Assembly: GCA_963718915.1 (NCBI GenBank)
Contig: CAVRAI010000001.1
Location: forward strand, 180,001-212,000
Direction: 5' to 3'
Origin: an uncultured Chloroflexia bacterium
GTDB lineage: Bacteria > Chloroflexota > Ktedonobacteria > Ktedonobacterales > JADMIN01
Length of the DNA: 32,000 nucleotides
Shown here piece after piece: positions 9,726-31,740 of the stretch (within the stretch, counting starts at the first letter, position 1; every line of letters starts with the position of its first letter). Position numbers and translations under genes: made by a program. Below the pieces are notes generated by a model that ran no database searches, was not told where the DNA came from, and saw only the letters and a list, made by a program, of their open reading frames with translations.

Positions 9726-12700
9726 TCAGTTGCTCGTGGCGGCGGGTATTGGGCTGGGATCGGCGCTCTCGGGGTCGGATGGGCAGACATAGCAGAAGGC
9801 GCAGGCGGCGCAACGACGCTCATTGGGGCGTGGCGCGAAAGCACCGGCGACGATACCCCTCGCCGCTTCATCCAGTTTGTCCAGCTTCGAGCGGCTCTTC
9901 CGCTCTGGGTCAAGATAGCGTTCGGCGGCTTTGCGCGCTTCATCGGTGACATCGCGCTGATGCCGTGGATCATACGAGTCCGCCGAGTCCGCCGAGTCCG
10001 CCGACGCATCATCCAGCGTCCCGCTAGTGTAGGCAAGGACGATCCGTACCGGAACTCCAGGGTGTTGCTGTTGATACGCCAGATAGTAGAGCGGCAGGGT
10101 CAGATCGTCTTTATGGGCGTCGCGGGGACGCCCGGTATGCAGTCGCACCAGGATGGTCAGCGGCGCGGCGCCCTCACCAGAGGAGATGCTACCGTCGATC
10201 TCGCGGTCAGCCGTCACCTCGACGACGCAGTGCTTCAGGTCGGCCTGTAGTGGCTGCGCCAGCCGCACCCGCTCGGACGCCGCCACTCCCTCCGGCGACG
10301 TGATCGCCCGCCACTCTTCGCGCAGAATAGCCTCCGCAGCCTGCCGATAGAAGTCTTCGTAGGCATGCCCCGCTGGGCCGACCTCGTCCCAGAGCGGTTG
10401 AAGTCGCGCCTCGGCGGCTTTCCAGTCCGCTCCGGGGCTGGCTGCCTGGACATCACGTAATGTCCGCGCGCCCTGGCGGATGAACGCATGGAAGCTGTAG
10501 ACAGCCTCTCGCGCGGGATCGCGAAAATCGTGGATGCGCAGGTATTTGTATTGCAGTGGACATTCCAGATACTGGTTCAGGTCGTGCAGCCGGAAGACTG
10601 GCTTCTCGCGTGGCGATTGCGCGGGCGTCCGCTCAGACACAGGCGCCGCAGCGAACGAACCATCGCTCTCGCTTTCGTCCTCTTCGTCGTCGTTCGTCTC
10701 CTCGAAGGTGGCGGCGACGGCCAGCAGACGCTCGCACTCCTCGTCGGAGAGCAGCGGTTCGGCGGCCTCCCAACCCGGCGCGCCATCCATGAGCGCCAGC
10801 AGCGATGATCGCTCCGCCGTGCGCCCGTTGCTATAGCTGGCGGCGCGACTGAAGGCAACGATATCGCGCGCGCGGGTGACGCCGACGTAGAAGAGGCAGC
10901 GCTCCTCCGCGTCACGCTCGCCGGGTGTATCGCCATCGCGAAATCCGGGCGGCGCAATCTCTTCGCGCCCAGGCCTGCCCGCCGGAAACTGGCCGTGCGC
11001 CAGGTTGGGCAGCAGCACTACCGGAAATTCCAGCCCTTTGCTCTGGTGCAGTGTCAGGATATGGACGGCATCCTCATTTCCAGCCGGGACAGGCACCGCG
11101 ACATCGGTTGCCCGCAGCGCGCGCAGATAGTGCAGAAAGCAGGTCACTACCGGGACGGCCTCGTCAGGTTGCGCGGAGGCAGGGGCAGCGGATGGCATGA
11201 CATCGGCATTGGGCGCGGGAGCGAGCGTATCGGGTTGCGCGGCGCGCGCCGCCTTCCGATGGCGTACCGCGCGGCTCAATCGGGCGCGGAACTCTGGCTC
11301 TGCCTGCCAGCGCGCGTCGAAGCGCCATGCCAGCCGCACCAGTTCGCCGAGCGCCGCCAGCGCCTGGCTCGCCTGCCCAGCGGTCTCCAGGCCAGGAAGC
11401 GCATCCTGTCGCTGTGGCGCATCCTGGCCATCGGCGACGCGCGCCAGCCGCCAGGCATATCCTCCCGACAGCAGCAGAAAATCCGCCAGCTTGGCGCCCA
11501 CGAAGGAGCTATTGCGCAGTCCTGTTGCAATTTCGCCCAGCCGGACGAGTCCGGCGCGTGTCGTCGGCGCGAGCGGCGGAATCTGGCCAAGCATGTGTCC
11601 GTCCCGTAGCGCGCCAGGGAGCGCGCGCTGCTGGATTGAGAGATAGCGCGCCGTGGCGGCAAGCTCATTCCCTGCGGGAGCTGAGCAACCAAGGGCGACC
11701 AGGAGCGGAGCGGAGCGCAGGACTCCGCGCGCATCTGGTCCCGCCGCCAGTGTGAGCAGCATCAGCGCGTCCTTCACCTCTGACCGCTCGAAGAAATCGC
11801 CAAGCTGGCTGACGGGTACGCCTCGTCTGGTGAGGATGGCGGCGATCTGGCGCGCCTGCTTGTGCGTGCGACAGAGAATCGCCTGGTCGCCATAGCGATA
11901 GTCGTGCACATGGAAGCGCTCGATGGCCGCCGCCAGCCCAACGCGCTCGTGTGCCGCGCTGGCGAATGTCTCCGTGCGCAGAATGGGTTGATGGGCGCCG
12001 TCGCCACGCGCCGGTTCCAGGTCGAGCGGTTGCAGCGCCTCATGCAACGCGCCTGTGGATGGGACTGGGGACAAGGAGGTCGGGGCCAGCCGCGCCAGCT
12101 GCGTCGCCATCGCGGAACCGAGCCGCACAATGCCTGGCACAGCGCGATAGCATCGTCGCAGCCTCAGCACACGCAGATTGGGGTAGCGCTCCGCCAGTCG
12201 CGGGAGATTGCCCGGTGAGGCGCCACGAAATCGATAGATCGACTGATTCTGATCGCCCACCACCCAGAGACCGCCGCCAGCGTCGCCCGCGATCAGCAGC
12301 AGCAATTCGGCAGCCGCGCGGTTGGTATCCTGGAACTCATCCACGAGAATCTGGGAATAGCGCCCACGTACGTGGGCCAAAACGGCGCGATTCGCTCGCA
12401 ACAACTCGACGGCGCGTTGAATCAGGCCGCCAAAGTCCACCAGTCCGCGCCGACGCAATGCACGATCCCAGACCGCATAGGCCGCGGCCCGCTCGCGCGC
12501 TCGTGCAATCTGCTCATCGGTAAATGCGCCATCTGGCGGCTGAATCTTCCGGCTCTGCCTTTTCCGCGCGCTCCCTGGCGATTCGATCTCCGTTGATGCG
12601 TCTGGCGCGGGCATCCGCGGCATCGCATCCACCAGCGCCAGGTAGTCCATGGGGGTCAGCAGCTCGTCGCGCGCGTGGGAGAAATCATCCAGGAGCGTGC

Positions 12701-13796
12701 GCAGGTGCGCGGTGGGATTGCCCAGCGAGCGGTAGTAGTGCAGTGGCAACTCGCCGAGCAACCCCTCCATCAGCAGGAAGGCGTTCGGCTCGTCGAGAAT
12801 GCGGAAGTCGGCGGTGAGTTCGGCCTCGTCGGGCGTGTGTGGCGCTTGCGAGGCGTATTCGCGCAGGAGCGTGGCGGCGAAGGCGTGGATCGTCATGATG
12901 GGCATACGCTCGCCCGGCAGTCCGCTTCGCTCCAGGCGCTCGCGCATCTCGCCAGCGGCACGGTTCGAGAACGTCAATGCCAGCACCTCTTCTGGCTGGA
13001 TGTGGCGTTCTTCGATGAGATGGGCGGCGCGACCAACCAGGGTCGCCGTCTTACCTGTTCCAGGGCCAGCCACGACCAGCGCGGGGCCGGGCGCGCGCGC
13101 GGCCAGCCGCTGCCCGTCATCCAGTTGCGCGATCAGTTCACCCGGAGCGTGTGCTTCACCGCTGTTTGCCTCTTGCGATGGTGCGGGCGCGCTTATGCCA
13201 TCCGTCGGTCGCTCCGGCGCCAGGACAGCGTCGATGAGGCGGCGGCGCGCCAGCAGATGCGAGATGCCAAAGTGGAGAGCCAGTTGCGCGGCGCCTATCG
13301 CGGAGCCTGAGGTAAAGATGCGGCGCACCTCGGCGCGTGGGGCCAGCAATTCGGCGGCAAAGGCGTTGGCCTCCTGTTCGCGCCGAACCCGTGGCGAATA
13401 TTCCTCGACGACACGGTCTTCGCTACGCAGGGCGGCGGCATCGGTCTGTTGATTCACTGCCCGCTCGTCACATGGCGCAAAGAGGCGGATACCCTCGCCG
13501 CGATGGAGCATGTAGTGGCCCAGTTCGTGCGCGATGGCAAACCGCCGCAGTTCTGGGTCCAGGTCGGCGCTCAGCCAGATGGCGCCGCCGAGACGGGGAT
13601 TCTCCCACGCCCAGAGTTGCAGCCGTGAATAGGCGCCGCCCAGCATCACATCGTCGCTGGGGCAGGGCTGAAGCTCGATCCCCAGGATGACGCGCAGGTG
13701 GTCGCTGTGGACGGCATCCGCGCTGGTGTCAGCGATCAGTTGCGCGCGCAAGGTAGCGGCGGCGCGTTCAATAACTTCGATACGTTTTGTAGGCAT
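9726..13796 (-). CDS. Fusion protein: ImmA/IrrE-type (M78) metallopeptidase + UvrD/PcrA-type SF1 helicase + C-terminal Cas4/AddB-like PD-(D/E)XK nuclease with Cys cluster
   Basis: 1356 aa from an ATG at 13796 with TGAGGA upstream. Peptidase motifs are HELGH (aa 90-94) and EQEANAFAAELLAP. Helicase motifs are GPGTGKT, TFSNRAAGEM, VDEFQDTN, GDQNQSIYRFRGA, LHQSKGLEFP and EERCLFYVGVTRA. The nuclease part has YLECPLQYKY, LPLYYLAYQQ and a terminal CAACAFCYVC. Confidence 0.9.
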   Translation of the reverse strand: MPTKRIEVIERAAATLRAQLIADTSADAVHSDHLRVILGIELQPCPSDDVMLGGAYSRLQLWAWENPRLGGAIWLSADLDPELRRFAIAHELGHYMLHRGEGIRLFAPCDERAVNQQTDAAALRSEDRVVEEYSPRVRREQEANAFAAELLAPRAEVRRIFTSGSAIGAAQLALHFGISHLLARRRLIDAVLAPERPTDGISAPAPSQEANSGEAHAPGELIAQLDDGQRLAARAPGPALVVAGPGTGKTATLVGRAAHLIEERHIQPEEVLALTFSNRAAGEMRERLERSGLPGERMPIMTIHAFAATLLREYASQAPHTPDEAELTADFRILDEPNAFLLMEGLLGELPLHYYRSLGNPTAHLRTLLDDFSHARDELLTPMDYLALVDAMPRMPAPDASTEIESPGSARKRQSRKIQPPDGAFTDEQIARARERAAAYAVWDRALRRRGLVDFGGLIQRAVELLRANRAVLAHVRGRYSQILVDEFQDTNRAAAELLLLIAGDAGGGLWVVGDQNQSIYRFRGASPGNLPRLAERYPNLRVLRLRRCYRAVPGIVRLGSAMATQLARLAPTSLSPVPSTGALHEALQPLDLEPARGDGAHQPILRTETFASAAHERVGLAAAIERFHVHDYRYGDQAILCRTHKQARQIAAILTRRGVPVSQLGDFFERSEVKDALMLLTLAAGPDARGVLRSAPLLVALGCSAPAGNELAATARYLSIQQRALPGALRDGHMLGQIPPLAPTTRAGLVRLGEIATGLRNSSFVGAKLADFLLLSGGYAWRLARVADGQDAPQRQDALPGLETAGQASQALAALGELVRLAWRFDARWQAEPEFRARLSRAVRHRKAARAAQPDTLAPAPNADVMPSAAPASAQPDEAVPVVTCFLHYLRALRATDVAVPVPAGNEDAVHILTLHQSKGLEFPVVLLPNLAHGQFPAGRPGREEIAPPGFRDGDTPGERDAEERCLFYVGVTRARDIVAFSRAASYSNGRTAERSSLLALMDGAPGWEAAEPLLSDEECERLLAVAATFEETNDDEEDESESDGSFAAAPVSERTPAQSPREKPVFRLHDLNQYLECPLQYKYLRIHDFRDPAREAVYSFHAFIRQGARTLRDVQAASPGADWKAAEARLQPLWDEVGPAGHAYEDFYRQAAEAILREEWRAITSPEGVAASERVRLAQPLQADLKHCVVEVTADREIDGSISSGEGAAPLTILVRLHTGRPRDAHKDDLTLPLYYLAYQQQHPGVPVRIVLAYTSGTLDDASADSADSADSYDPRHQRDVTDEARKAAERYLDPERKSRSKLDKLDEAARGIVAGAFAPRPNERRCAACAFCYVCPSDPESADPSPIPAATSN
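9975..10001. repeat. 9-bp tandem repeat CGAGTCCGC x3 inside the helicase-nuclease gene
   Basis: Read directly from the sequence. On the minus strand it encodes SADSADSADS in a linker just before the C-terminal Cys cluster region. Confidence 0.9.
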
Positions 13797-23705: not shown

Positions 23706-23849
23706 CCAGCCCGCGCCACCTCAGCTATCCACTTGCGCCGTATCATGCTCCTTGCTATACTATGCGCCACGGCCGTACGATTGCTACCCAGACGTGTGTC
23801 AGGAGCACACGCAGGCATACAACGAGCAGCCGTGGAGCGAGAAGACCTG

Positions 23850-25283
23850 ATGAGACATGCATGGACGAACCGCATCGGGCGTTTGCTGGCGATCCTCCTG
23901 TTGGCCATGGTGAGCGCGCTGCTGCTGGTGGCGCCCGCGCGGGCTGATGGCGTCACAGTAACACTCTCAACCTCGAACGGCACGAGCTTTACCTATGATG
24001 GTACGCAGCCCTTATTTACTGTGGTCGTGACATTCGCAACGAAGCCGACGATAAACAACTGTGGGCAAGAATACGTACATATCGATAGCGGACAAGATAC
24101 TGCTGTGGGTCTCGGGCCATCAGTCAGCCCAGATGGGCTGACCTGGACATTTACGCAAATCAGACCTGTTGGTACGATCCCCGTTGGCCCGCATACCGCG
24201 GTCGCGACATTCCTTGCTCCTGGGGCATCATGCACAACTGTCCAGAGTGCTCCATTGAGTTTCACGGTGAATAAAGCGACGTTCGCGCTGACCTGTAGTC
24301 TTAACGGGCCTGACGCGTATCTTGGAATCAATGGCCAAACGCTACACGTCCTGATGGCGCCTTATTCCGGCGCGGGGCAGTTGCCGACAGAGTTGCAAAC
24401 AGGGACCTACAATGTCTCGCTGGATGGGCCAACCCACGTCGCGGCGACGAATCTCACCCTCAATAGCAATAATGAGGCGACGATAACTGGCCCCACGCAA
24501 ATCGGCCTGTATAGGCTAACGTGTACATTCAATGGATCTGTGTCGTATACACCATCCACCATCACAGACACCAATCCCTACATGTTCAGCGCGCTGCATA
24601 GTCTGGGGGTCGTCAAACTCTACACCAACCCAACGACCCTGATCGCGGGAAGGAGTGCGGACTTCTATGTCGTATTCCATCCGGCGTCAGGATTGCCGAT
24701 GCCTACAGGGGAATTTTCTATCTGGCTCGGCCAAAGTCATACCATGCTCATGACGTTGGGGCCAACTGGCGCGTATCTGGTTCACGTCGACAAAATACCA
24801 GTGCTTGCTGGTGTGAGCAACATCGAAATCTTCTATCCCGGTGACCTGTACTACGCTCCGTCTAGTGTCGACTTCCCGCTCACCAATCCACCGATCCCAT
24901 CAGGTGTTGGCTCAGGAGGCACAGGCTCTACAGGCGGATCATTTGGCAATGCTCCGCAGGGGACAGCGACGGCGCAGGGAACGCCCGACACAACGGCGAC
25001 GGCGGATAGCGGCGCAGCAACGCCAACAACGGCCGTCGCGGGCAGCGCGGCGCCGACCACGCATTCCCAATCGGGCGATAATGGTGGGCTGTGGCTGATC
25101 GTCATCCTCGCGCTGGGCGGTCTGATCGTCGCTGGTGGTGCGGTTGGCTCCGGCATCTTCCTGATGCGACGCGCCAGAATATCTTCGAGCGCGGTTTCGC
25201 AGGCGCCGCGCGACTTCTACGTCCCGCCATCTTATACGCCACCGAGTGATGGGACGTGGCCTCCTCTCTACGACAATAGATAG
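23850..25283 (+). CDS. Secreted, C-terminally membrane-anchored protein with Ig-like beta-rich repeats and a Pro-rich cytoplasmic tail
   Basis: An ATG at 23850 begins the signal peptide MRHAWTNRIGRLLAILLLAMVSALLLVAPARA/DG. A Thr/Ser/Gly-rich beta-type ectodomain follows, then a G/T/A-rich linker and the TM segment LWLIVILALGGLIVAGGAVGSGIFLM followed by RRAR. The tail reads YVPPSYTPPSDGTWPPLYDNR. Confidence 0.7.
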   Translation: MRHAWTNRIGRLLAILLLAMVSALLLVAPARADGVTVTLSTSNGTSFTYDGTQPLFTVVVTFATKPTINNCGQEYVHIDSGQDTAVGLGPSVSPDGLTWTFTQIRPVGTIPVGPHTAVATFLAPGASCTTVQSAPLSFTVNKATFALTCSLNGPDAYLGINGQTLHVLMAPYSGAGQLPTELQTGTYNVSLDGPTHVAATNLTLNSNNEATITGPTQIGLYRLTCTFNGSVSYTPSTITDTNPYMFSALHSLGVVKLYTNPTTLIAGRSADFYVVFHPASGLPMPTGEFSIWLGQSHTMLMTLGPTGAYLVHVDKIPVLAGVSNIEIFYPGDLYYAPSSVDFPLTNPPIPSGVGSGGTGSTGGSFGNAPQGTATAQGTPDTTATADSGAATPTTAVAGSAAPTTHSQSGDNGGLWLIVILALGGLIVAGGAVGSGIFLMRRARISSSAVSQAPRDFYVPPSYTPPSDGTWPPLYDNR

Positions 25284-25371: not shown

Positions 25372-26520
25372 TCACTCACCAGTTGTTTCGTCGGGCATGT
25401 TGGCTGACGGCGTCTGCTCATGGCGGATGGAGGCCAGGCCCGCGGTGACACGCTGCCGCAGACCGCGCAGACGCGCCACCTGTGTCTTGCCCTGGGCGCC
25501 AACCTGCGCCGTCGCCTCGTTCCACAACTTGCCGGTATTCTGCCGCAGGTGCGCGAGCCTCACCTCCGCCGATTGTTGCACGCGGGCAGCGCCAGCCCGC
25601 GCATCCGCCGCGAAATCCCGGTGTGTGGGTGGCGTCGCGACTGGTGTTTCCCGCGTTATCGGCGGCTCAGGCGCTGGTGTGGCGGGCGCGACGGCCGGGG
25701 CAGCCGAGACGACAGGCACAGTGTTCGGCACGGACGCTGGCTCAGCGGCTACCTGCGCCTCCACCGCTGTTGCCACTACAGGCTCGGCCGTTGCCTCTAT
25801 CGCCGTCTCCGCAGCTGGCTCGACCAGCCGCCGGGGGCCGGGCTGCGCTGCGGGCTGGACTGGCTGCTTCACGGGTACCGCCTGCGCGTCAGCTTCAGAT
25901 GCGGGCGTCGCGATACGTCCCACGGGAACGGGGCGCGCCCGGCGGGCGGCGGGAACCGGGGTGGTGGGACGGGCAACGGGAGCGGGAGCCGTCTGTGGCA
26001 GGAGACGGAGCGCGGTTGCCGCGCTGGACGCATGGCTGGCGGCTGGCCGGGCGATACGCAGGGCGGCAAGCTGGTCGCGCGCCTCGTCGCGCTGGGCCGT
26101 CACCCGGTCGTGATCGTCCGCCAGCGCCTGGTGACGCGCCAGCACCCGCTCGTGACGCGCCAATAGATCCTCATGCTGCTCTATCAGCCGCGCGCGCAGC
26201 TCCTCACGATCCTCGATGTAGTCCTCTTGCTCCTCCAGCAGATCCTCGCGATCCACCAGCAGTCGCTCCAGGCTTCGTACATCACGTTCGAGCGCGCGGA
26301 CATGCAGTCCGGCGGCGAGTCGGCCCGGCAGCAGGAGCAGCAGCGCAATCACGAAGCCGAAGACCGCCGCACCCAACATCACGAACGCTACGTTCACCGG
26401 GTATTGCGCTTTGATCAGGTCAATTTGAATCGTGTAGTGATTGAGCGCCAGAAAGATGAGTACCATGAAACCCAGAACCGATACCATCACATACAAGATC
26501 AAGAAGCGTATGATGCGCAT
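25372..26520 (-). CDS. LapA-domain (DUF1049-like) two-TM protein with coiled coil and Ala/Pro-rich low-complexity tail
   Basis: The N-terminus MRIIRFLILYVMVSVLGFMVLIFLAL...VAFVMLGAAVFGFVIALLLLLP gives two TM helices as in the LapA domain. A charged heptad-like segment (RDVRSLERLLVDREDLLEEQEDYIEDREELRARLIEQHEDLLARHERVLARHQAL) follows, then A/P/T-rich sequence. Confidence 0.65.
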   Translation of the reverse strand: MRIIRFLILYVMVSVLGFMVLIFLALNHYTIQIDLIKAQYPVNVAFVMLGAAVFGFVIALLLLLPGRLAAGLHVRALERDVRSLERLLVDREDLLEEQEDYIEDREELRARLIEQHEDLLARHERVLARHQALADDHDRVTAQRDEARDQLAALRIARPAASHASSAATALRLLPQTAPAPVARPTTPVPAARRARPVPVGRIATPASEADAQAVPVKQPVQPAAQPGPRRLVEPAAETAIEATAEPVVATAVEAQVAAEPASVPNTVPVVSAAPAVAPATPAPEPPITRETPVATPPTHRDFAADARAGAARVQQSAEVRLAHLRQNTGKLWNEATAQVGAQGKTQVARLRGLRQRVTAGLASIRHEQTPSANMPDETTGE

Positions 26521-27436: not shown

Positions 27437-28486
27437 CTATGCGATTGTGCCTGAGCCAGTCGTCATAGGCGTTGGCAGCGGACGCAATCCCGCCTCTATC
27501 TCGCGCCGGTGTGGCTCCAGGAACGGCGGCAGCGCCAGCGTCTCGCCGAGATGCTCCGCATCCTCGTCCGTGGCGAAGCCGGGGCCGTCGGTGGCAATCT
27601 CGAAGAGCACGCCGCCCGGCTCGCGGAAGTAGATCGAATGGAAGTAGAAGCGGTCGATCACTGGCGTCACGCGAAGCCCTGCCTCGTCGAGCCGCTCGCG
27701 CCAGGCGACGTGTGTCTCGTTGGTTGGCGTGCGGAAGGCGACGTGGTGGACGCCGCCGATGCCGACTTGGCCCATTCGCGGGTCGCCGACGCGCTGCTCC
27801 AGATGTACCTCTGTGCCGGGGCCGCCGTTGCCCACCTGATAGATACGCACCAGCCGGGTCTCGCCGCCCCCCTCGCTCGGCGGCAGGGTATACTGGCCTG
27901 ACTCGCGGAAGCCCATCGTCTCCGTGAGCACGTGCAGGGTGGCGTCCTCACGCGCCGAGAGCAACCGGACACCGTGCAGCCCGCGAATCTGGTATTCCGC
28001 CGGGATGGGGCTGCGCGCCCAGGGCGTGCCACCCGCGACGTGCTGCTCCTCGCCCTCTGCCGGGGCCACCAGCTCCAGCCGCTGCCCCTCAGGGTCGCTG
28101 AACGGCAAGACCGCACGGCCCGCGCGCTGCTGGACGCCCTCATGCGCGACGCTTCGCTCATCGAAGTGCTGCACCCACCAGTCGAGCGCGGCGCGGTCTG
28201 GCGCGCGCAGCAGAATCGCGGCGACGGTTCCCACGCCATGGCGCGCGGGGCCAGCGTCGGGCCAGTCGAAGAAGGTCAACTCGGTGCCCGCGTGGCCGCT
28301 CTCGTCGCCGTAGAAGAGGTGGTAGGCTGAGACATCGTCCTGGTTGACGGTCTTCTTGACCAGCCGCATGCCCAGCACCTGTGTGTAAAACGCGACATTG
28401 CCCGCCGCGTTGCCGGTGACGGCGGTGATGTGGTGCAGCCCGCCGAGCCGCGAATTTGCTGTATTGGTTGTCTCAATCTTTTCCAT
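27437..28486 (-). CDS. VOC-superfamily ring-cleaving dioxygenase (glyoxalase family, MhqA/MhqO-like)
   Basis: An ATG at 28486 is preceded by GGAGCAGG. GLHHITAVTGNAAGNVAFYTQVLGMRLVKKTVNQDDVSAYHLFYGDESGHAGTELTFFDWP and the later GGVHHVAFR...FHSIYFREPGGVLFEIATDGPGF are typical of this family. Confidence 0.85.
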   Translation of the reverse strand: MEKIETTNTANSRLGGLHHITAVTGNAAGNVAFYTQVLGMRLVKKTVNQDDVSAYHLFYGDESGHAGTELTFFDWPDAGPARHGVGTVAAILLRAPDRAALDWWVQHFDERSVAHEGVQQRAGRAVLPFSDPEGQRLELVAPAEGEEQHVAGGTPWARSPIPAEYQIRGLHGVRLLSAREDATLHVLTETMGFRESGQYTLPPSEGGGETRLVRIYQVGNGGPGTEVHLEQRVGDPRMGQVGIGGVHHVAFRTPTNETHVAWRERLDEAGLRVTPVIDRFYFHSIYFREPGGVLFEIATDGPGFATDEDAEHLGETLALPPFLEPHRREIEAGLRPLPTPMTTGSGTIA

Positions 28487-28563
28487 GATCCTGCTCCGTT
28501 TCGGTCTGCGTGTAGTGCCAGCGGAAGCCATGCCAGCCCCTCTGATACACTATACCTTCTACA

Positions 28564-28585
28564 AATAGTTTAGTACTAAACTATT
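28564..28585. promoter_or_regulatory. Perfect 22-bp AT-rich palindrome, candidate operator
   Basis: AATAGTTTAGT/ACTAAACTATT lies 78 bp upstream of the dioxygenase start and 109 bp upstream of the MazG-like start, in the divergent intergenic region. Confidence 0.45.
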
Positions 28586-28693
28586 GAACTGTCAACAGGC
28601 GGACGGCTATCATCGTGAGGTTAGGTCATACAAGCGGCATATGATACACTTAAGTCGCACGCTTAAATCATTCAAAAATGTGAGGAGACCTGC

Positions 28694-29032
28694 ATGGATA
28701 TTCAGGATTTTCAAGCATATCAGCAAGCATCGCGAAAGACCTGGGGAGCGATCCCGATGGATAGTCCCATTGTATATCCGACACTCGGACTCACCAACGA
28801 GGCTGGGGAGGTTGCAGGAAAGATCAAAAAGATCTTTCGCGATAAAGGGGGAAAGATTTCCGCAGAGGATCGTGAAGCCCTGAAATACGAATTAGGGGAC
28901 GTCCTGTGGTATCTCACCCAGATCTGTACAGAACTGGATCTGACCCTGCAAGAAGTCGCATCAGCGAATGTTGAAAAGCTCTATTCGCGCCTGGAACGCG
29001 GTCAGATTCGTGGAGAGGGCGATAAGCGGTAA
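28694..29032 (+). CDS. MazG-like nucleoside triphosphate pyrophosphohydrolase (small all-alpha NTP-PPase)
   Basis: 112 aa with an RBS GAGGAG. LGLTNEAGEVAGKIKKIFRD (EXXE) and ELGDVLWYLTQICTELDL...NVEKL are typical of the small MazG family. The region is low-GC. Confidence 0.8.
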   Translation: MDIQDFQAYQQASRKTWGAIPMDSPIVYPTLGLTNEAGEVAGKIKKIFRDKGGKISAEDREALKYELGDVLWYLTQICTELDLTLQEVASANVEKLYSRLERGQIRGEGDKR

Positions 29033-29274
29033 AGAGCCATATGAAGGAGAAAGACGAGCAGTCAGGTTCTCTCGTGGTCAGTCCGCTGGGATTGAAGATT
29101 CTGCGGGTCAAACCACCTACTTTACCCGAATCCCTGGGGGTGGAGGCGACGCGCGGGTTCCAGTGTATGCCGCCCAAAGTATTCTGTGACATACTGTGAA
29201 AGGTGAATGGCGCAGCGCACATGCGTTGTGGCAGAGAATACCTAGAGACACATTACAAGGGCTACATAGTGTCC

Positions 29275-29484
29275 ATGCATTCCACTTCAGCACAGATAAC
29301 GACTGATCCGCAGGTCCTCAGCGGCAAACCGGTGGTCGCTGGCACACGTATCTCAGTGCAACTCATCCTCGAAAAGATGCGTGATGGTTGGACGATCACA
29401 GACCTGCTTGATGACTATCCCCACCTCACCCGCGAGCAGATCGTTGCCGCTCTCGCCTATGTTGCCGAAGCCATGGGAGCATAG
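29275..29484 (+). CDS. DUF433 domain protein (antitoxin-like HTH), no cognate toxin gene adjacent
   Basis: TTDPQVLSGKPVVAGTRISVQLILEKMRDGWTITDLLDDYPHLTREQIVAALAY is the canonical DUF433 pattern. An ATG at 29275 is the likely start, whereas the track ORF begins at 29203. Confidence 0.8.
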   Translation: MHSTSAQITTDPQVLSGKPVVAGTRISVQLILEKMRDGWTITDLLDDYPHLTREQIVAALAYVAEAMGA

Positions 29485-29517
29485 GGCGCCTGATGAATTT
29501 TATGCGCACTTATTAGA

Positions 29518-31422
29518 TCACCTCGCAGATCGCTGGAAGGCCTCGACCATCCGCTGAGCGATCTGGCGATGGCCATGAAGGTGGGCAGGGAGTGATAACA
29601 GTTGATAATTCTCTGAGCCTCGTATATGGCCTATAACACCTGTTCCTGTTAACCAAGATGATCCTCGGACGACCAAGTTATCTAACTCGCTGAAGGCTGT
29701 ATAGCTTTCATGACCGAATAGACGACGCACGATCCCTGTTGGATAGATTATCAGCATCTCCGGCACGTTTCCTGCCCTCTCAAGCCGATGAATTCCCAAA
29801 GGGATAAGGACAAATATTCCAGCGGCATACAGTACCGGCATAAGGACTTGGTTGAGTATCCCTCCCGTTGCTAGGATGCCACCAAGGAGCATCAGGAAGA
29901 GAAGATCCCAACGCGTCAACTTGCCGCCGTAAAATACTTGCTCGTCGGGAAGCGGAGCCTTCATCATTCCTCGTGCGAGAACATAGATTGGAGCATCTTC
30001 TCGGTGCATGGTTATTTCTTCTGGAAGCACGCCAGTTCTCTCTAAGGCAAACAGTATTTGCAAGAAACCGGTATAATGATCCTTTCGCATATCGGCATAA
30101 ATGTAAGGACGCAACTTAGCAGGGATAGACCTGCACGCCTTTACCATGACACCAATCACGGGCTTACCTAAGTCCAATGCCGTCGTATATTCTTCTTGAA
30201 CGGCTTCAGAACGCATAGAATCAGGGGAAATGAAGACAGCGAGCGCTGAACACTGTTGGATAGCGGTTCGGATCTCCTGTTTCCACCGCTTCCCAGCCAA
30301 TAGCCGACTACGATCAACCCATGGCTGCAAACCGTTCTCCCGGATTCCCCTTTCAGCGTCATCGACGACTTGTGGGTTACTGCGTGCATAGCTCAGGAAG
30401 ATAAGTGGCCTGTGTTCACTAGGCTGATCACTTGTTCTGCTCTTCTGGGCGTGTCGGAACGCAACGACAATCCTTGCCGCGATCACTTGCGTGATTTTGC
30501 TTAGCGAGCGTCCTGGCTGGAAATTGAATGTTGCTGGGATCATCACCGTCTTCCGTGTCCCATCATCCTCGACTACTGCTAACGAAGATCCGAAGAGATC
30601 GGCAACACGAGCGGAGACTCCTTTTTTTAAGGACTTGTAATCGACACTTTCAAGCTCCAAAATCTGGATTGATTGCAGCTTTGCAAATGGATATGACACA
30701 ACCCTTCCAGGCTCATTGATCAGAAATCCGTGCGGGGTTAGGACGATTAACGGGCCATATTTTACAACTTGCCAAATCTTTGTACGATAGGCTCTGAAGA
30801 ATGAAATAGCAAATATAACTCCGAACACGAGATATACACCCGACTCGTAATAGGCTCGCTGAAATTGGTCAATCACAAATGCGAGAAACGAAATGATCAT
30901 TACCAATGCAGCTGCGGTGAACGTTTCACGCGTGACGATGCGATACGAACGCGAGTGACGGCGATAGACCTGCCAATCAGGGGGAGTAAGACCATTCTGG
31001 GCCCGCACCAACACGACATCGGGATCAAACAGTGACGGATCATTAGGCCAGTGACTCAAGCCCTCCATATCAAGCGCAAGCAGCAATTCGCGCCACCCAA
31101 AATCAAACGACCGTGTAAAATCGCTCCACTGCAAGTCTCGAAGCGCATTGGGCAACTCGCGCCTTTTGTAAATAAGTAGCGGAAGAATTGGTCGTTGAGC
31201 CGTTGTAGCAACAGCAATTGCTTTATTTACAAGGGAGACATATTGCTTCTGCTCAGTAATGCCAATGCAGATTGCGGCAAAAGGCGACAGCCGCTGCAAT
31301 TGAGAGTTGTCGCTGACGAGCGAGATGCGTAGGCCCCGCGCAACCAATCCTTCAGCAATTCTTGCACCTAGCGTTTGCTCGGTTGTTGGTAAGCAAACGA
31401 TGATGTGAGGAGCATCAGTCAT
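29518..31422 (-). CDS. Membrane protein with internally duplicated [TIR - 2 TM helices - PH-like domain] architecture
   Basis: 634 aa with an RBS GAGGAGGGGG. The second TIR (aa about 338-465, nt 30028-30411) reads PLIFLSYARSNPQVVDDAERGIRENGLQPWVDRSRLLAGKRWKQEIRTAIQQCSALAVFISPDSMRSEAVQEEYTTALDLGKPVIGVMV. The first, TIR-like domain spans aa 5-118. TM pairs lie at aa about 167-212 and 505-546. Each pair is followed by a roughly 90-110 aa beta-rich segment. Confidence 0.8.
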   Translation of the reverse strand: MTDAPHIIVCLPTTEQTLGARIAEGLVARGLRISLVSDNSQLQRLSPFAAICIGITEQKQYVSLVNKAIAVATTAQRPILPLLIYKRRELPNALRDLQWSDFTRSFDFGWRELLLALDMEGLSHWPNDPSLFDPDVVLVRAQNGLTPPDWQVYRRHSRSYRIVTRETFTAAALVMIISFLAFVIDQFQRAYYESGVYLVFGVIFAISFFRAYRTKIWQVVKYGPLIVLTPHGFLINEPGRVVSYPFAKLQSIQILELESVDYKSLKKGVSARVADLFGSSLAVVEDDGTRKTVMIPATFNFQPGRSLSKITQVIAARIVVAFRHAQKSRTSDQPSEHRPLIFLSYARSNPQVVDDAERGIRENGLQPWVDRSRLLAGKRWKQEIRTAIQQCSALAVFISPDSMRSEAVQEEYTTALDLGKPVIGVMVKACRSIPAKLRPYIYADMRKDHYTGFLQILFALERTGVLPEEITMHREDAPIYVLARGMMKAPLPDEQVFYGGKLTRWDLLFLMLLGGILATGGILNQVLMPVLYAAGIFVLIPLGIHRLERAGNVPEMLIIYPTGIVRRLFGHESYTAFSELDNLVVRGSSWLTGTGVIGHIRGSENYQLLSLPAHLHGHRQIAQRMVEAFQRSAR

Positions 31423-31740
31423 ATCCCCCTCCTCGTAGATATTCAGAGATGAGTGGAGCAGCGCAATACATCATTCTTGCTGCGAAAGAAGAGAGAGTGG
31501 TTATCTACCCCTTCTTCGAATTGTTCATATGCCATCGCATGACGCATGGCTGCGTGACAACGTTATCTACCCATGGTCAGCTTTGTGGCTTTCATCAGAC
31601 GCCTTTTAGCCCAGCACTGCTTCCTTAATATATCATCTCTGGCAATGGCTCCGCGAACTGCATTGCATGAAGTACTCGCTAGCAGAAGGAAGCGAATATG
31701 ATCAGCCCATATATTGGGTGAATTATAGCCCCTCAACTCT

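Follow-up and report, generated by a model that had tools for sequence, protein, structure and literature searches.

Tandem TIR-2TM-PH-like units pair a degenerate and a catalytic-type TIR domain in a predicted membrane-anchored protein from a Ktedonobacterales genome

The subject of this analysis is a gene on the minus strand of a 32,000-nucleotide stretch of DNA, hereafter the window, from an uncultured Chloroflexia bacterium of the order Ktedonobacterales (GenBank assembly GCA_963718915.1, contig CAVRAI010000001.1, forward-strand positions 180,001 to 212,000). Its 634-residue product consists of two collinear paralogous units, each composed of a TIR domain, a hairpin of two transmembrane (TM) helices and a PH-like beta-rich domain with a C-terminal helix. 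We tentatively interpret this protein as a self-contained, membrane-tethered TIR NAD+ glycohydrolase, a single-chain pseudo-heterodimer that would trigger growth arrest or death, and we rate this interpretation at a little short of an even chance. The gene and the elements of its product are located as follows, with the basis of each assignment in brackets.

29518-31422, minus strand: TIR gene, 634 aa, [degenerate TIR-2TM-PH-like]-[catalytic-type TIR-2TM-PH-like] (open reading frame list, translation)
31425-31434, minus strand: ribosome-binding site GAGGAGGGGG, with the GGAGG core 5 nt upstream of the ATG (read from the sequence)
31048-31410, minus strand: N-terminal degenerate TIR domain, aa 5-125 (profiles via homologues, AlphaFold2 (AF2))
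31219-31221, minus strand: codon of Ala68, the equivalent of the catalytic glutamate (alignments; codon position checked)
30931-31047, minus strand: juxtamembrane segment 1, aa 126-164, with the motif D..VVLARAQNGLTPP.W.VYR (conservation, AF2)
30784-30930, minus strand: TM hairpin 1, aa 165-213, with helices at 165-187 and 194-213 and a loop of about 6 aa (hydropathy, AF2, charges)
30442-30783, minus strand: predicted PH-like beta-rich domain 1, aa 214-327, seven strands and a C-terminal helix (AF2, Foldseek)
30028-30411, minus strand: C-terminal catalytic-type TIR domain, aa 338-465 (Pfam TIR_2, PADLOC, profile against PDB, Foldseek)
30190-30192, minus strand: codon of Glu411, the predicted catalytic glutamate (alignments; codon position checked)
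29914-30027, minus strand: juxtamembrane segment 2, aa 466-503, with the motif ..VLARG....LPDEQVF (hhalign alignment with segment 1)
29770-29913, minus strand: TM hairpin 2, aa 504-551, with helices at 504-523 and 528-551 (hydropathy, AF2, charges)
29530-29769, minus strand: predicted PH-like beta-rich domain 2, aa 552-631, six strands and a C-terminal helix (hhalign, AF2)

A preliminary description of this stretch, read from the letters alone, had noted that the order TIR, two hydrophobic helices and beta-rich segment occurs twice in the protein, and this duplication was borne out by BLASTP, hhalign and AF2 secondary structure. Residues 1-331 and 332-634 aligned collinearly in BLASTP (E 2e-4), and hhalign, run on 4-sequence profiles built from the closest homologues, matched the two halves with a probability of 96.7% (E 4.1e-10) over 276 columns, pairing aa 5-325 with aa 339-632. 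Furthermore, the sub-parts of both units matched independently in hhalign, with E-values of 8e-5 for the TIR, 1.3e-6 for the TM pair plus beta-rich domain and 8.4e-7 for the beta-rich domain alone, the last two giving profile support to the repeat of the C-terminal domain. AF2 secondary structure revealed an identical element order in both halves, each helix pair being followed by 6-7 strands and a long C-terminal helix, and the domain and helix limits drawn earlier by eye agreed with the AF2 limits to within a few residues. The reading frame opens with an ATG at 31422, the homologues beginning at the same Met, and an identical protein (P0001) is present in public collections (509,910-bp contig).

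The second TIR (aa 338-465) was confirmed as such. Against Pfam TIR_2 (PF13676), it scored 84.5 bits (E 1.1e-23; cut-off 28), with the match spanning aa 341-453 and profile positions 1-118 of 122. Several PADLOC TIR models also matched (best 1.3e-14), as did Pfam ThsB_TIR (E 1.3e-6), the latter covering only 52 residues. A single-sequence phmmer search of this domain against PDB returned no match, and a family profile was needed; built from 16 family members, this profile retrieved the TIRs of SARM1, an AbTir-type protein, SPARTA and Cat1 at E-values of approximately 1e-8. Moreover, Foldseek ranked the SPARTA and SARM1 TIRs first, and the RPS4/RRS1 TIR heterodimer (4c6t) was among its matches. 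In the profile alignment, Glu411 fell on SARM1 residue 642, the catalytic glutamate on helix alphaC. Glu411 is the acidic residue that had been singled out earlier within SEAVQEEYTTA, a segment that indeed occupies aa 405-415 (30178-30210, minus strand). A glutamate is invariant at this column (24 of 24 active-type TIRs of the family), and the domain keeps the usual TIR_2 motifs, with FxSY, WxDR and G..W all present. Judged from these alignments, the C-terminal TIR carries the conserved-glutamate feature of a catalytically competent TIR NADase.

The N-terminal TIR on its own matched TIR_2 at 16.3 bits (E 0.014), under the 28-bit cut-off. Orthologous N-terminal-type domains matched TIR_2 at E ≤ 0.01 in 15 of the 16 family members (best 8e-14), a profile of the domain retrieved the SPARTA TIR (E 3.6e-7) and the MyD88 TIR (E 0.02) from PDB, and its AF2 model displayed a beta-alpha alternation like that of the second TIR. 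Because these intermediates match TIR_2, the profile reaches SPARTA and the predicted alternation is that of a TIR, we regard the domain, which the preliminary description had delimited at aa 5-118, as a diverged but in all probability real TIR that lacks the catalytic glutamate. Ala68 aligns with Glu411 and is invariant in the four closest homologues; no acidic residue was found at aa 59-75, and the FxSY, WxDR and G..W motifs of the active copy are missing from the N-terminal TIR. The by-eye observation that VSLVNKAIAVA (aa 62-72; 31207-31239, minus strand) contains no glutamate thus held. Nevertheless, the degenerate TIR is maintained and not decaying, under purifying selection as strong as that on the active TIR: the ratios of nonsynonymous to synonymous substitution rates, taken from one pair of close orthologues with small counts, were 0.22 both for the degenerate TIR and for the gene as a whole, with 0.25 for the active TIR, and mean identity in the close group was 55% for the degenerate and 51% for the active domain.

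All four soluble domains are predicted to lie in the cytoplasm, close to the inner leaflet, because the distribution of lysine and arginine follows the positive-inside rule, the outer loops are short and no signal peptide was found in the protein. Summed over 32 family hairpins, the number of these residues per 10 positions was 2.06 ahead of the first helix, dropped to 0.29 in the loop and came back to 1.62 past the second helix, with inter-helix loops of 3-17 residues. The preliminary description had named TIR domains outside the cell as an outcome that would speak against it; the charges place them in the cytoplasm. Between each TIR and its hairpin lies a juxtamembrane segment with the consensus D.EVVLARA..G..PP.W.VYR, modelled by AF2 as a helix plus a beta-hairpin. 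In the close group of five homologues, no other segment is as well conserved as segment 1 (mean identity 64%, with 53% for segment 2), and across 16 clusters it is second only to the C-terminal TIR (41% vs 42%). The juxtamembrane segment may pack onto the PH-like domain; if so, the TM hairpin would interrupt that domain as an insertion.

For the beta-rich domain itself, the PH-like label given earlier stood at the level of the predicted fold and found no counterpart among bacterial PH (bPH) sequence families. An AF2 model of aa 143-331, computed from a 32-row alignment, reached a predicted local distance difference test (pLDDT) score of 83.7 and a predicted template modelling score of 0.72, and comprised two long helices, seven strands and a C-terminal helix. 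Searched against PDB with Foldseek, this model returned weak matches (best E 4.9e-3), nearly all of which were PH or PTB folds, including Rtt106, the GRK2 PH domain, the ICAP1 and CCM2 PTB domains, FACT, Sin1 and BTK. None of the Pfam models bPH_1 to bPH_6 matched any of the 32 modules of the family at E-value limits of 1 and 10, whether or not the TM helices were included; a PDB sequence search with the module gave no match and no bPH chain, and a homologue search with the 32-module alignment returned nothing at E ≤ 1e-3. The NCBIfam model STM3941_fam (NF041635) matched aa 169-253 of the window protein at 21.3 bits (E 2e-4, under its 40-bit cut-off) and gave weak matches in 6 of the 32 modules, with 2e-4 as the best E-value. 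Placement in a curated family was rejected, as Pfam, NCBIfam and PDB offered only TM-driven noise and sub-threshold matches to STM3941, DUF6585, Cpta_toxin and DUF2244. The domain is therefore best described as a sequence family of its own, uncurated, and predicted to be PH-like at the fold level only.

Subsequently, we consider how far this layout extends. A word-indexed search yielded only three full-length homologue clusters (62%, 59% and 40% identity), with a layout identical to that of the window protein; one full-length homologue is annotated from a Ktedonobacterales metagenome-assembled genome. An exhaustive profile search, with local sorting by hidden Markov models, gave 16 full-length clusters (at 50% identity) with the degenerate unit followed by the active unit, and six clusters in the reversed order, active unit first (P0045, P0061, P0063, P0108, P0116 and P0130). 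P0055 and P0152 are complete single-unit proteins, both with an active-type TIR. P0018, P0021 and P0032, candidates for stand-alone degenerate units, proved to be truncated or frame-shifted fragments. Compared with its relative P0037 (658 aa), P0039 (558 aa) cleanly lacks both TM hairpins and keeps both TIRs and both beta-rich domains, and would thus represent a soluble form of the family, although it is a single metagenomic sequence in which an assembly error is possible. A scan of a genome collection with a 4-sequence alignment produced 23 pattern matches, none of which was confirmed. The family is rare and patchy in distribution.

At the catalytic column, the partner TIR of the 16 clusters with the window-type order has alanine in nine, aspartate in three, glutamate in two, and histidine and lysine in one each; in the six reversed-order clusters, Q and I occur twice each and Y once, and the remaining cluster has a gap. 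A neighbour-joining tree was computed from 46 TIR domains, a simple distance method in which long-branch effects are possible; it separated degenerate from active TIRs in 189 of 200 bootstraps, irrespective of where in the chain they lie, and both unit orders were represented in each of the two groups. Because each group holds both orders, the pairing of an active with a degenerate TIR appears to be old and to have been kept through a change of unit order. Either the order was swapped once the two paralogues were distinct, or a fusion of two genes took place on two independent occasions.

The profile search further brought up a set of proteins (P0020, P0022, P0025 and P0043) that includes very large ones with 7-8 TIR-like stretches. 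P0020 (2023 aa) combines repeated TIR units with a coiled coil and a C-terminal beta-propeller-like region, and P0043 (494 aa) has three near-identical TIR repeats. Tandem TIR arrays appear common in the metagenomes searched.

The genomic surroundings were analysed in the window and around homologues. Across a gap of 33 bp, the TIR gene converges on a DUF433 gene (29203-29484, plus strand; E 5.9e-24), and a gene for a MazG-type nucleoside triphosphate pyrophosphohydrolase (28694-29032, plus strand; E 2.2e-11) stands just upstream of the DUF433 gene; a glyoxalase-family gene also belongs to this neighbourhood, beyond the DUF433 gene. No partner gene for the DUF433 protein is visible, and the MazG protein clusters with Ktedonobacterales proteins. 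Neither the DUF433 nor the MazG adjacency recurs beside homologues of the TIR protein, both neighbours being specific to the window, which leaves a functional link unsupported. No neighbour gene was conserved in the nine distinct loci examined, and the protein therefore appears to act alone, as a one-protein system. With regard to Thoeris, a ThsA-like gene (SIR2 or Macro with SLOG or 2TM) adjoins neither the TIR gene nor any homologue examined. With regard to the TIR-SAVED proteins of CBASS, Pfam revealed no SAVED domain, and the PADLOC SAVED_TIR model matched only at positions 4-94 of 404, which is its TIR part.

An islet of low GC content at about 28,450-31,700 (approximately 3.2 kb; GC about 0.50, range 0.48-0.54, against a window value of 0.60 and 0.68 in the glyoxalase gene next to it) holds the MazG-like gene, the DUF433 gene and the TIR gene together with its 320-nt upstream spacer. 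This composition hints at a foreign, or at least distinct, origin, possibly as a horizontally acquired block. In addition, the 40%-identical homologue (locus L003/L004, 8945-21480) lies in an island with four other TIR proteins, namely a 269-aa protein directly upstream, a 1222-aa TIR-NB-ARC-WD40 protein, a 163-aa TIR protein and a 1325-aa Clp_N-TIR protein, and a large serine recombinase is found at the edge of this locus. Overall, the context gives limited support for a role in defence. Elsewhere in the window, we observed three large, poorly annotated reading frames, which encode a 516-aa protein (23733-25283, plus strand) with a hydrophobic N-terminus, a C-terminal TM helix, a proline-rich tail and no Pfam match; a 382-aa protein (25372-26520, minus strand) with a LapA-type membrane domain and a long Ala/Pro-rich tail; and a 1356-aa protein (9726-13796, minus strand) that forms a singleton cluster in the protein collection.

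TIR NADase active sites are known to form only by head-to-tail packing of two TIRs, as in SARM1, AbTir, plant TNL resistosomes and SPARTA, assemblies in which only some of the subunits are catalytic. Because such sites are completed by TIR-TIR packing with only some subunits active, the degenerate TIR would, by analogy, be a fixed non-catalytic partner of the catalytic TIR, one that activates or scaffolds it or, conversely, restrains it; the regulatory role proposed for the first TIR in the preliminary description is likewise one that we infer. Retention of the protein at the membrane, and control over the assembly of its units, would fall to the TM hairpins and PH-like domains. A membrane cue, for instance envelope damage linked to infection or a shift in lipids or in membrane potential, would then rearrange or cluster the units, and this would complete the active site, leading to NAD+ breakdown and thus to growth arrest or cell death, as abortive infection or programmed cell death. 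We count in favour of this pseudo-heterodimer the duplicated architecture, the invariant glutamate, a partner that mostly lacks the glutamate yet is maintained, the two TIR groups of the tree with both unit orders in each, and the cytoplasmic orientation, together with the absence of a conserved neighbour, the one homologue in a TIR island and the low-GC islet. A published precedent also counts for it, namely Dictyostelium TirC, reported to be a TIR NADase restrained by a membrane tether (PMC13142454).

Comparison with known systems sets this layout apart. By their profile matches, the TIR parts look like ordinary members of the TIR_2 group. The TIR NAD+ hydrolases SARM1, AbTir, SPARTA TIR-APAZ, ThsB and Cat1 resemble the C-terminal TIR in profile, fold and glutamate, whereas none of them is built as [TIR-2TM-PH-like] x2 or has a fixed degenerate TIR in its chain, and their partner or sensor domains (ARM/SAM, APAZ/Ago, ThsA and CARF) are absent from the window protein. 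The RPS4/RRS1 heterodimer, TNL resistosomes and SPARTA tetramers each combine a catalytic TIR with a non-catalytic TIR that shapes or restrains the site, like the role proposed here for the N-terminal TIR; however, their TIRs reside on separate chains or on identical subunits in different conformations, whereas the window protein is one membrane-tied polypeptide. In the bPH_2 family (YdbS-YdbT type) and the STM3941 family, as predicted for the window module, a pair of TM helices leads into a small beta-sandwich that ends in a C-terminal helix, and in YdbT the TM pair plus bPH module is repeated within one protein; these families are not fused to TIRs, and, as stated above, the bPH models found no match among the 32 modules. 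Systems of the TIR-SLATT, type II Thoeris and CBASS Cap15 kind bring a TIR enzyme together with a two-helix membrane module in a conflict setting (PMC9503650; PMC7159879). There, enzyme and membrane part are mostly encoded as distinct proteins, the latter being of the SLATT, Macro or beta-barrel type. TirC is similar in that a TIR NADase is attached to the membrane by a hydrophobic helix, a tether inferred by its authors to restrain auto-activation (PMC13142454); in contrast, TirC is a eukaryotic protein of bacterial origin that has just one N-terminal helix and one TIR, lacks a PH-like domain and is related to the TIR-STING/Pycsar TIR clade. A TIR plus PH plus TM layout, an arrangement also unfamiliar to the preliminary description, was not found in the searched literature, the coverage of which was incomplete. 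We likewise found no description of the combination as a whole, that is, tandem [TIR-2TM-PH-like] units with an active/degenerate division of labour between the TIRs and a pairing conserved in both orders.

Several points weigh against the pseudo-heterodimeric NADase. A conserved glutamate is no proof of NADase activity, as some TIRs are scaffolds or act on other nucleotides. Given the glutamate in 2 of 16 and the aspartate in 3 of 16 clusters, the domain that we call degenerate may still be active in some lineages. With a pLDDT of 65, the AF2 model of the full-length protein is of moderate quality only, and a triggering cue at the membrane is wholly hypothetical. Most homologues, furthermore, are found among housekeeping genes and not in defence islands.

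Two further readings keep the asymmetric TIR pair. According to the first, the pair is hard-wired: the active site would structurally depend on the degenerate TIR as its obligate second half, or else be locked by it, and the two TM-hairpin/PH-like modules would sense the state of the membrane and set the geometry between the TIRs, such that a single polypeptide would turn a physical change in the cytoplasmic membrane directly into NAD+ destruction or TIR signalling. We consider this elaboration unlikely, although it would, if true, represent a sensing principle undescribed for TIR immune proteins. According to the second, a variant of the pseudo-heterodimer with the opposite sign, the N-terminal TIR would be an autoinhibitor that sits on the surface by which the catalytic TIR assembles and is released by a trigger, like the RRS1 TIR restraining the RPS4 TIR. 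Consistent with autoinhibition, the covalent pairing of inactive and active TIRs is conserved in both unit orders, the single-unit proteins P0055 and P0152 carry the active type only, which shows that an active unit can stand alone, and the RPS4/RRS1 heterodimer is among the structural matches. Its probability is, in our estimate, similarly low.

A non-enzymatic role would dispense with catalysis altogether. The protein might be a membrane scaffold or adaptor whose TIRs serve as assembly modules, as in TLR/MyD88 signalling, within a membrane-proximal complex that takes part, perhaps, in the development or cell-cell interaction of filamentous Ktedonobacteria, with no NAD+ cleavage and no defence. 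The housekeeping character of most neighbourhoods suits such a role, as do the match of the N-terminal profile to the non-enzymatic MyD88 TIR and the fact that one TIR has clearly given up catalysis and is conserved all the same. However, the glutamate of the second TIR is invariant although the sequences have otherwise diverged to approximately 35-40% identity, the solved structures nearest to it by profile belong to active NADases (SARM1, AbTir-type, SPARTA and Cat1), and the rare, patchy distribution and low-GC islet suit a mobile conflict gene better than a core developmental gene. We regard the scaffold as improbable.

Equally doubtful is a signal generator and membrane effector in one chain, that is, Thoeris or TIR-SLATT in cis, in which the active TIR would make an ADP-ribose-derived messenger, the PH-like domains would serve as its receptor, and oligomerisation of the four TM helices would then make the membrane permeable, so that cells would die of membrane failure and not of NAD+ loss. 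Two TM helices followed by a small cytoplasmic beta-rich domain do resemble nucleotide-gated membrane effectors, which include CBASS Cap15/S-2TMbeta and the 2TM-Macro ThsA of type II Thoeris. With no conserved partner gene, moreover, the effector function would have to reside in the protein itself, and TIR genes have been reported beside 2TM SLATT genes, predicted to encode permeability effectors gated by ADP-ribose derivatives (PMC9503650; PMC7159879). A pore is nonetheless disfavoured, because the hairpin-less P0039 keeps its TIRs and beta-rich domains, as if the soluble parts worked without one, because Pfam SLATT and S_2TMBeta matched 0 of 32 modules at E ≤ 1 (the lone SLATT match being NCBIfam SLATT_5 at E 0.8), and because the TM helices, read directly, are plainly hydrophobic with Gly-rich packing motifs and not amphipathic; in addition, Foldseek returned PH and PTB folds and not Cap15, and only a TP.G turn is nearly invariant in the beta-rich domain, conserved ligand-pocket residues not being evident.

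Bacteria, plants and animals alike employ TIR enzymes in immunity and cell death, and the control of their assembly is a central question. The present family offers a natural case in which the catalytic and non-catalytic roles, normally played by identical subunits that differ in conformation, are fixed in two paralogous domains of one membrane-anchored chain. Were the protein inactive or a scaffold, it would still represent an uncurated domain family of modest interest in Chloroflexota. If the model of a single-chain pseudo-heterodimer is true, the protein would provide a simple system in which the two TIR roles can be separated by mutation, together with a membrane-coupled TIR trigger, and the natural variants (single units, reversed order and the hairpin-less form) would supply a ready-made comparison set.

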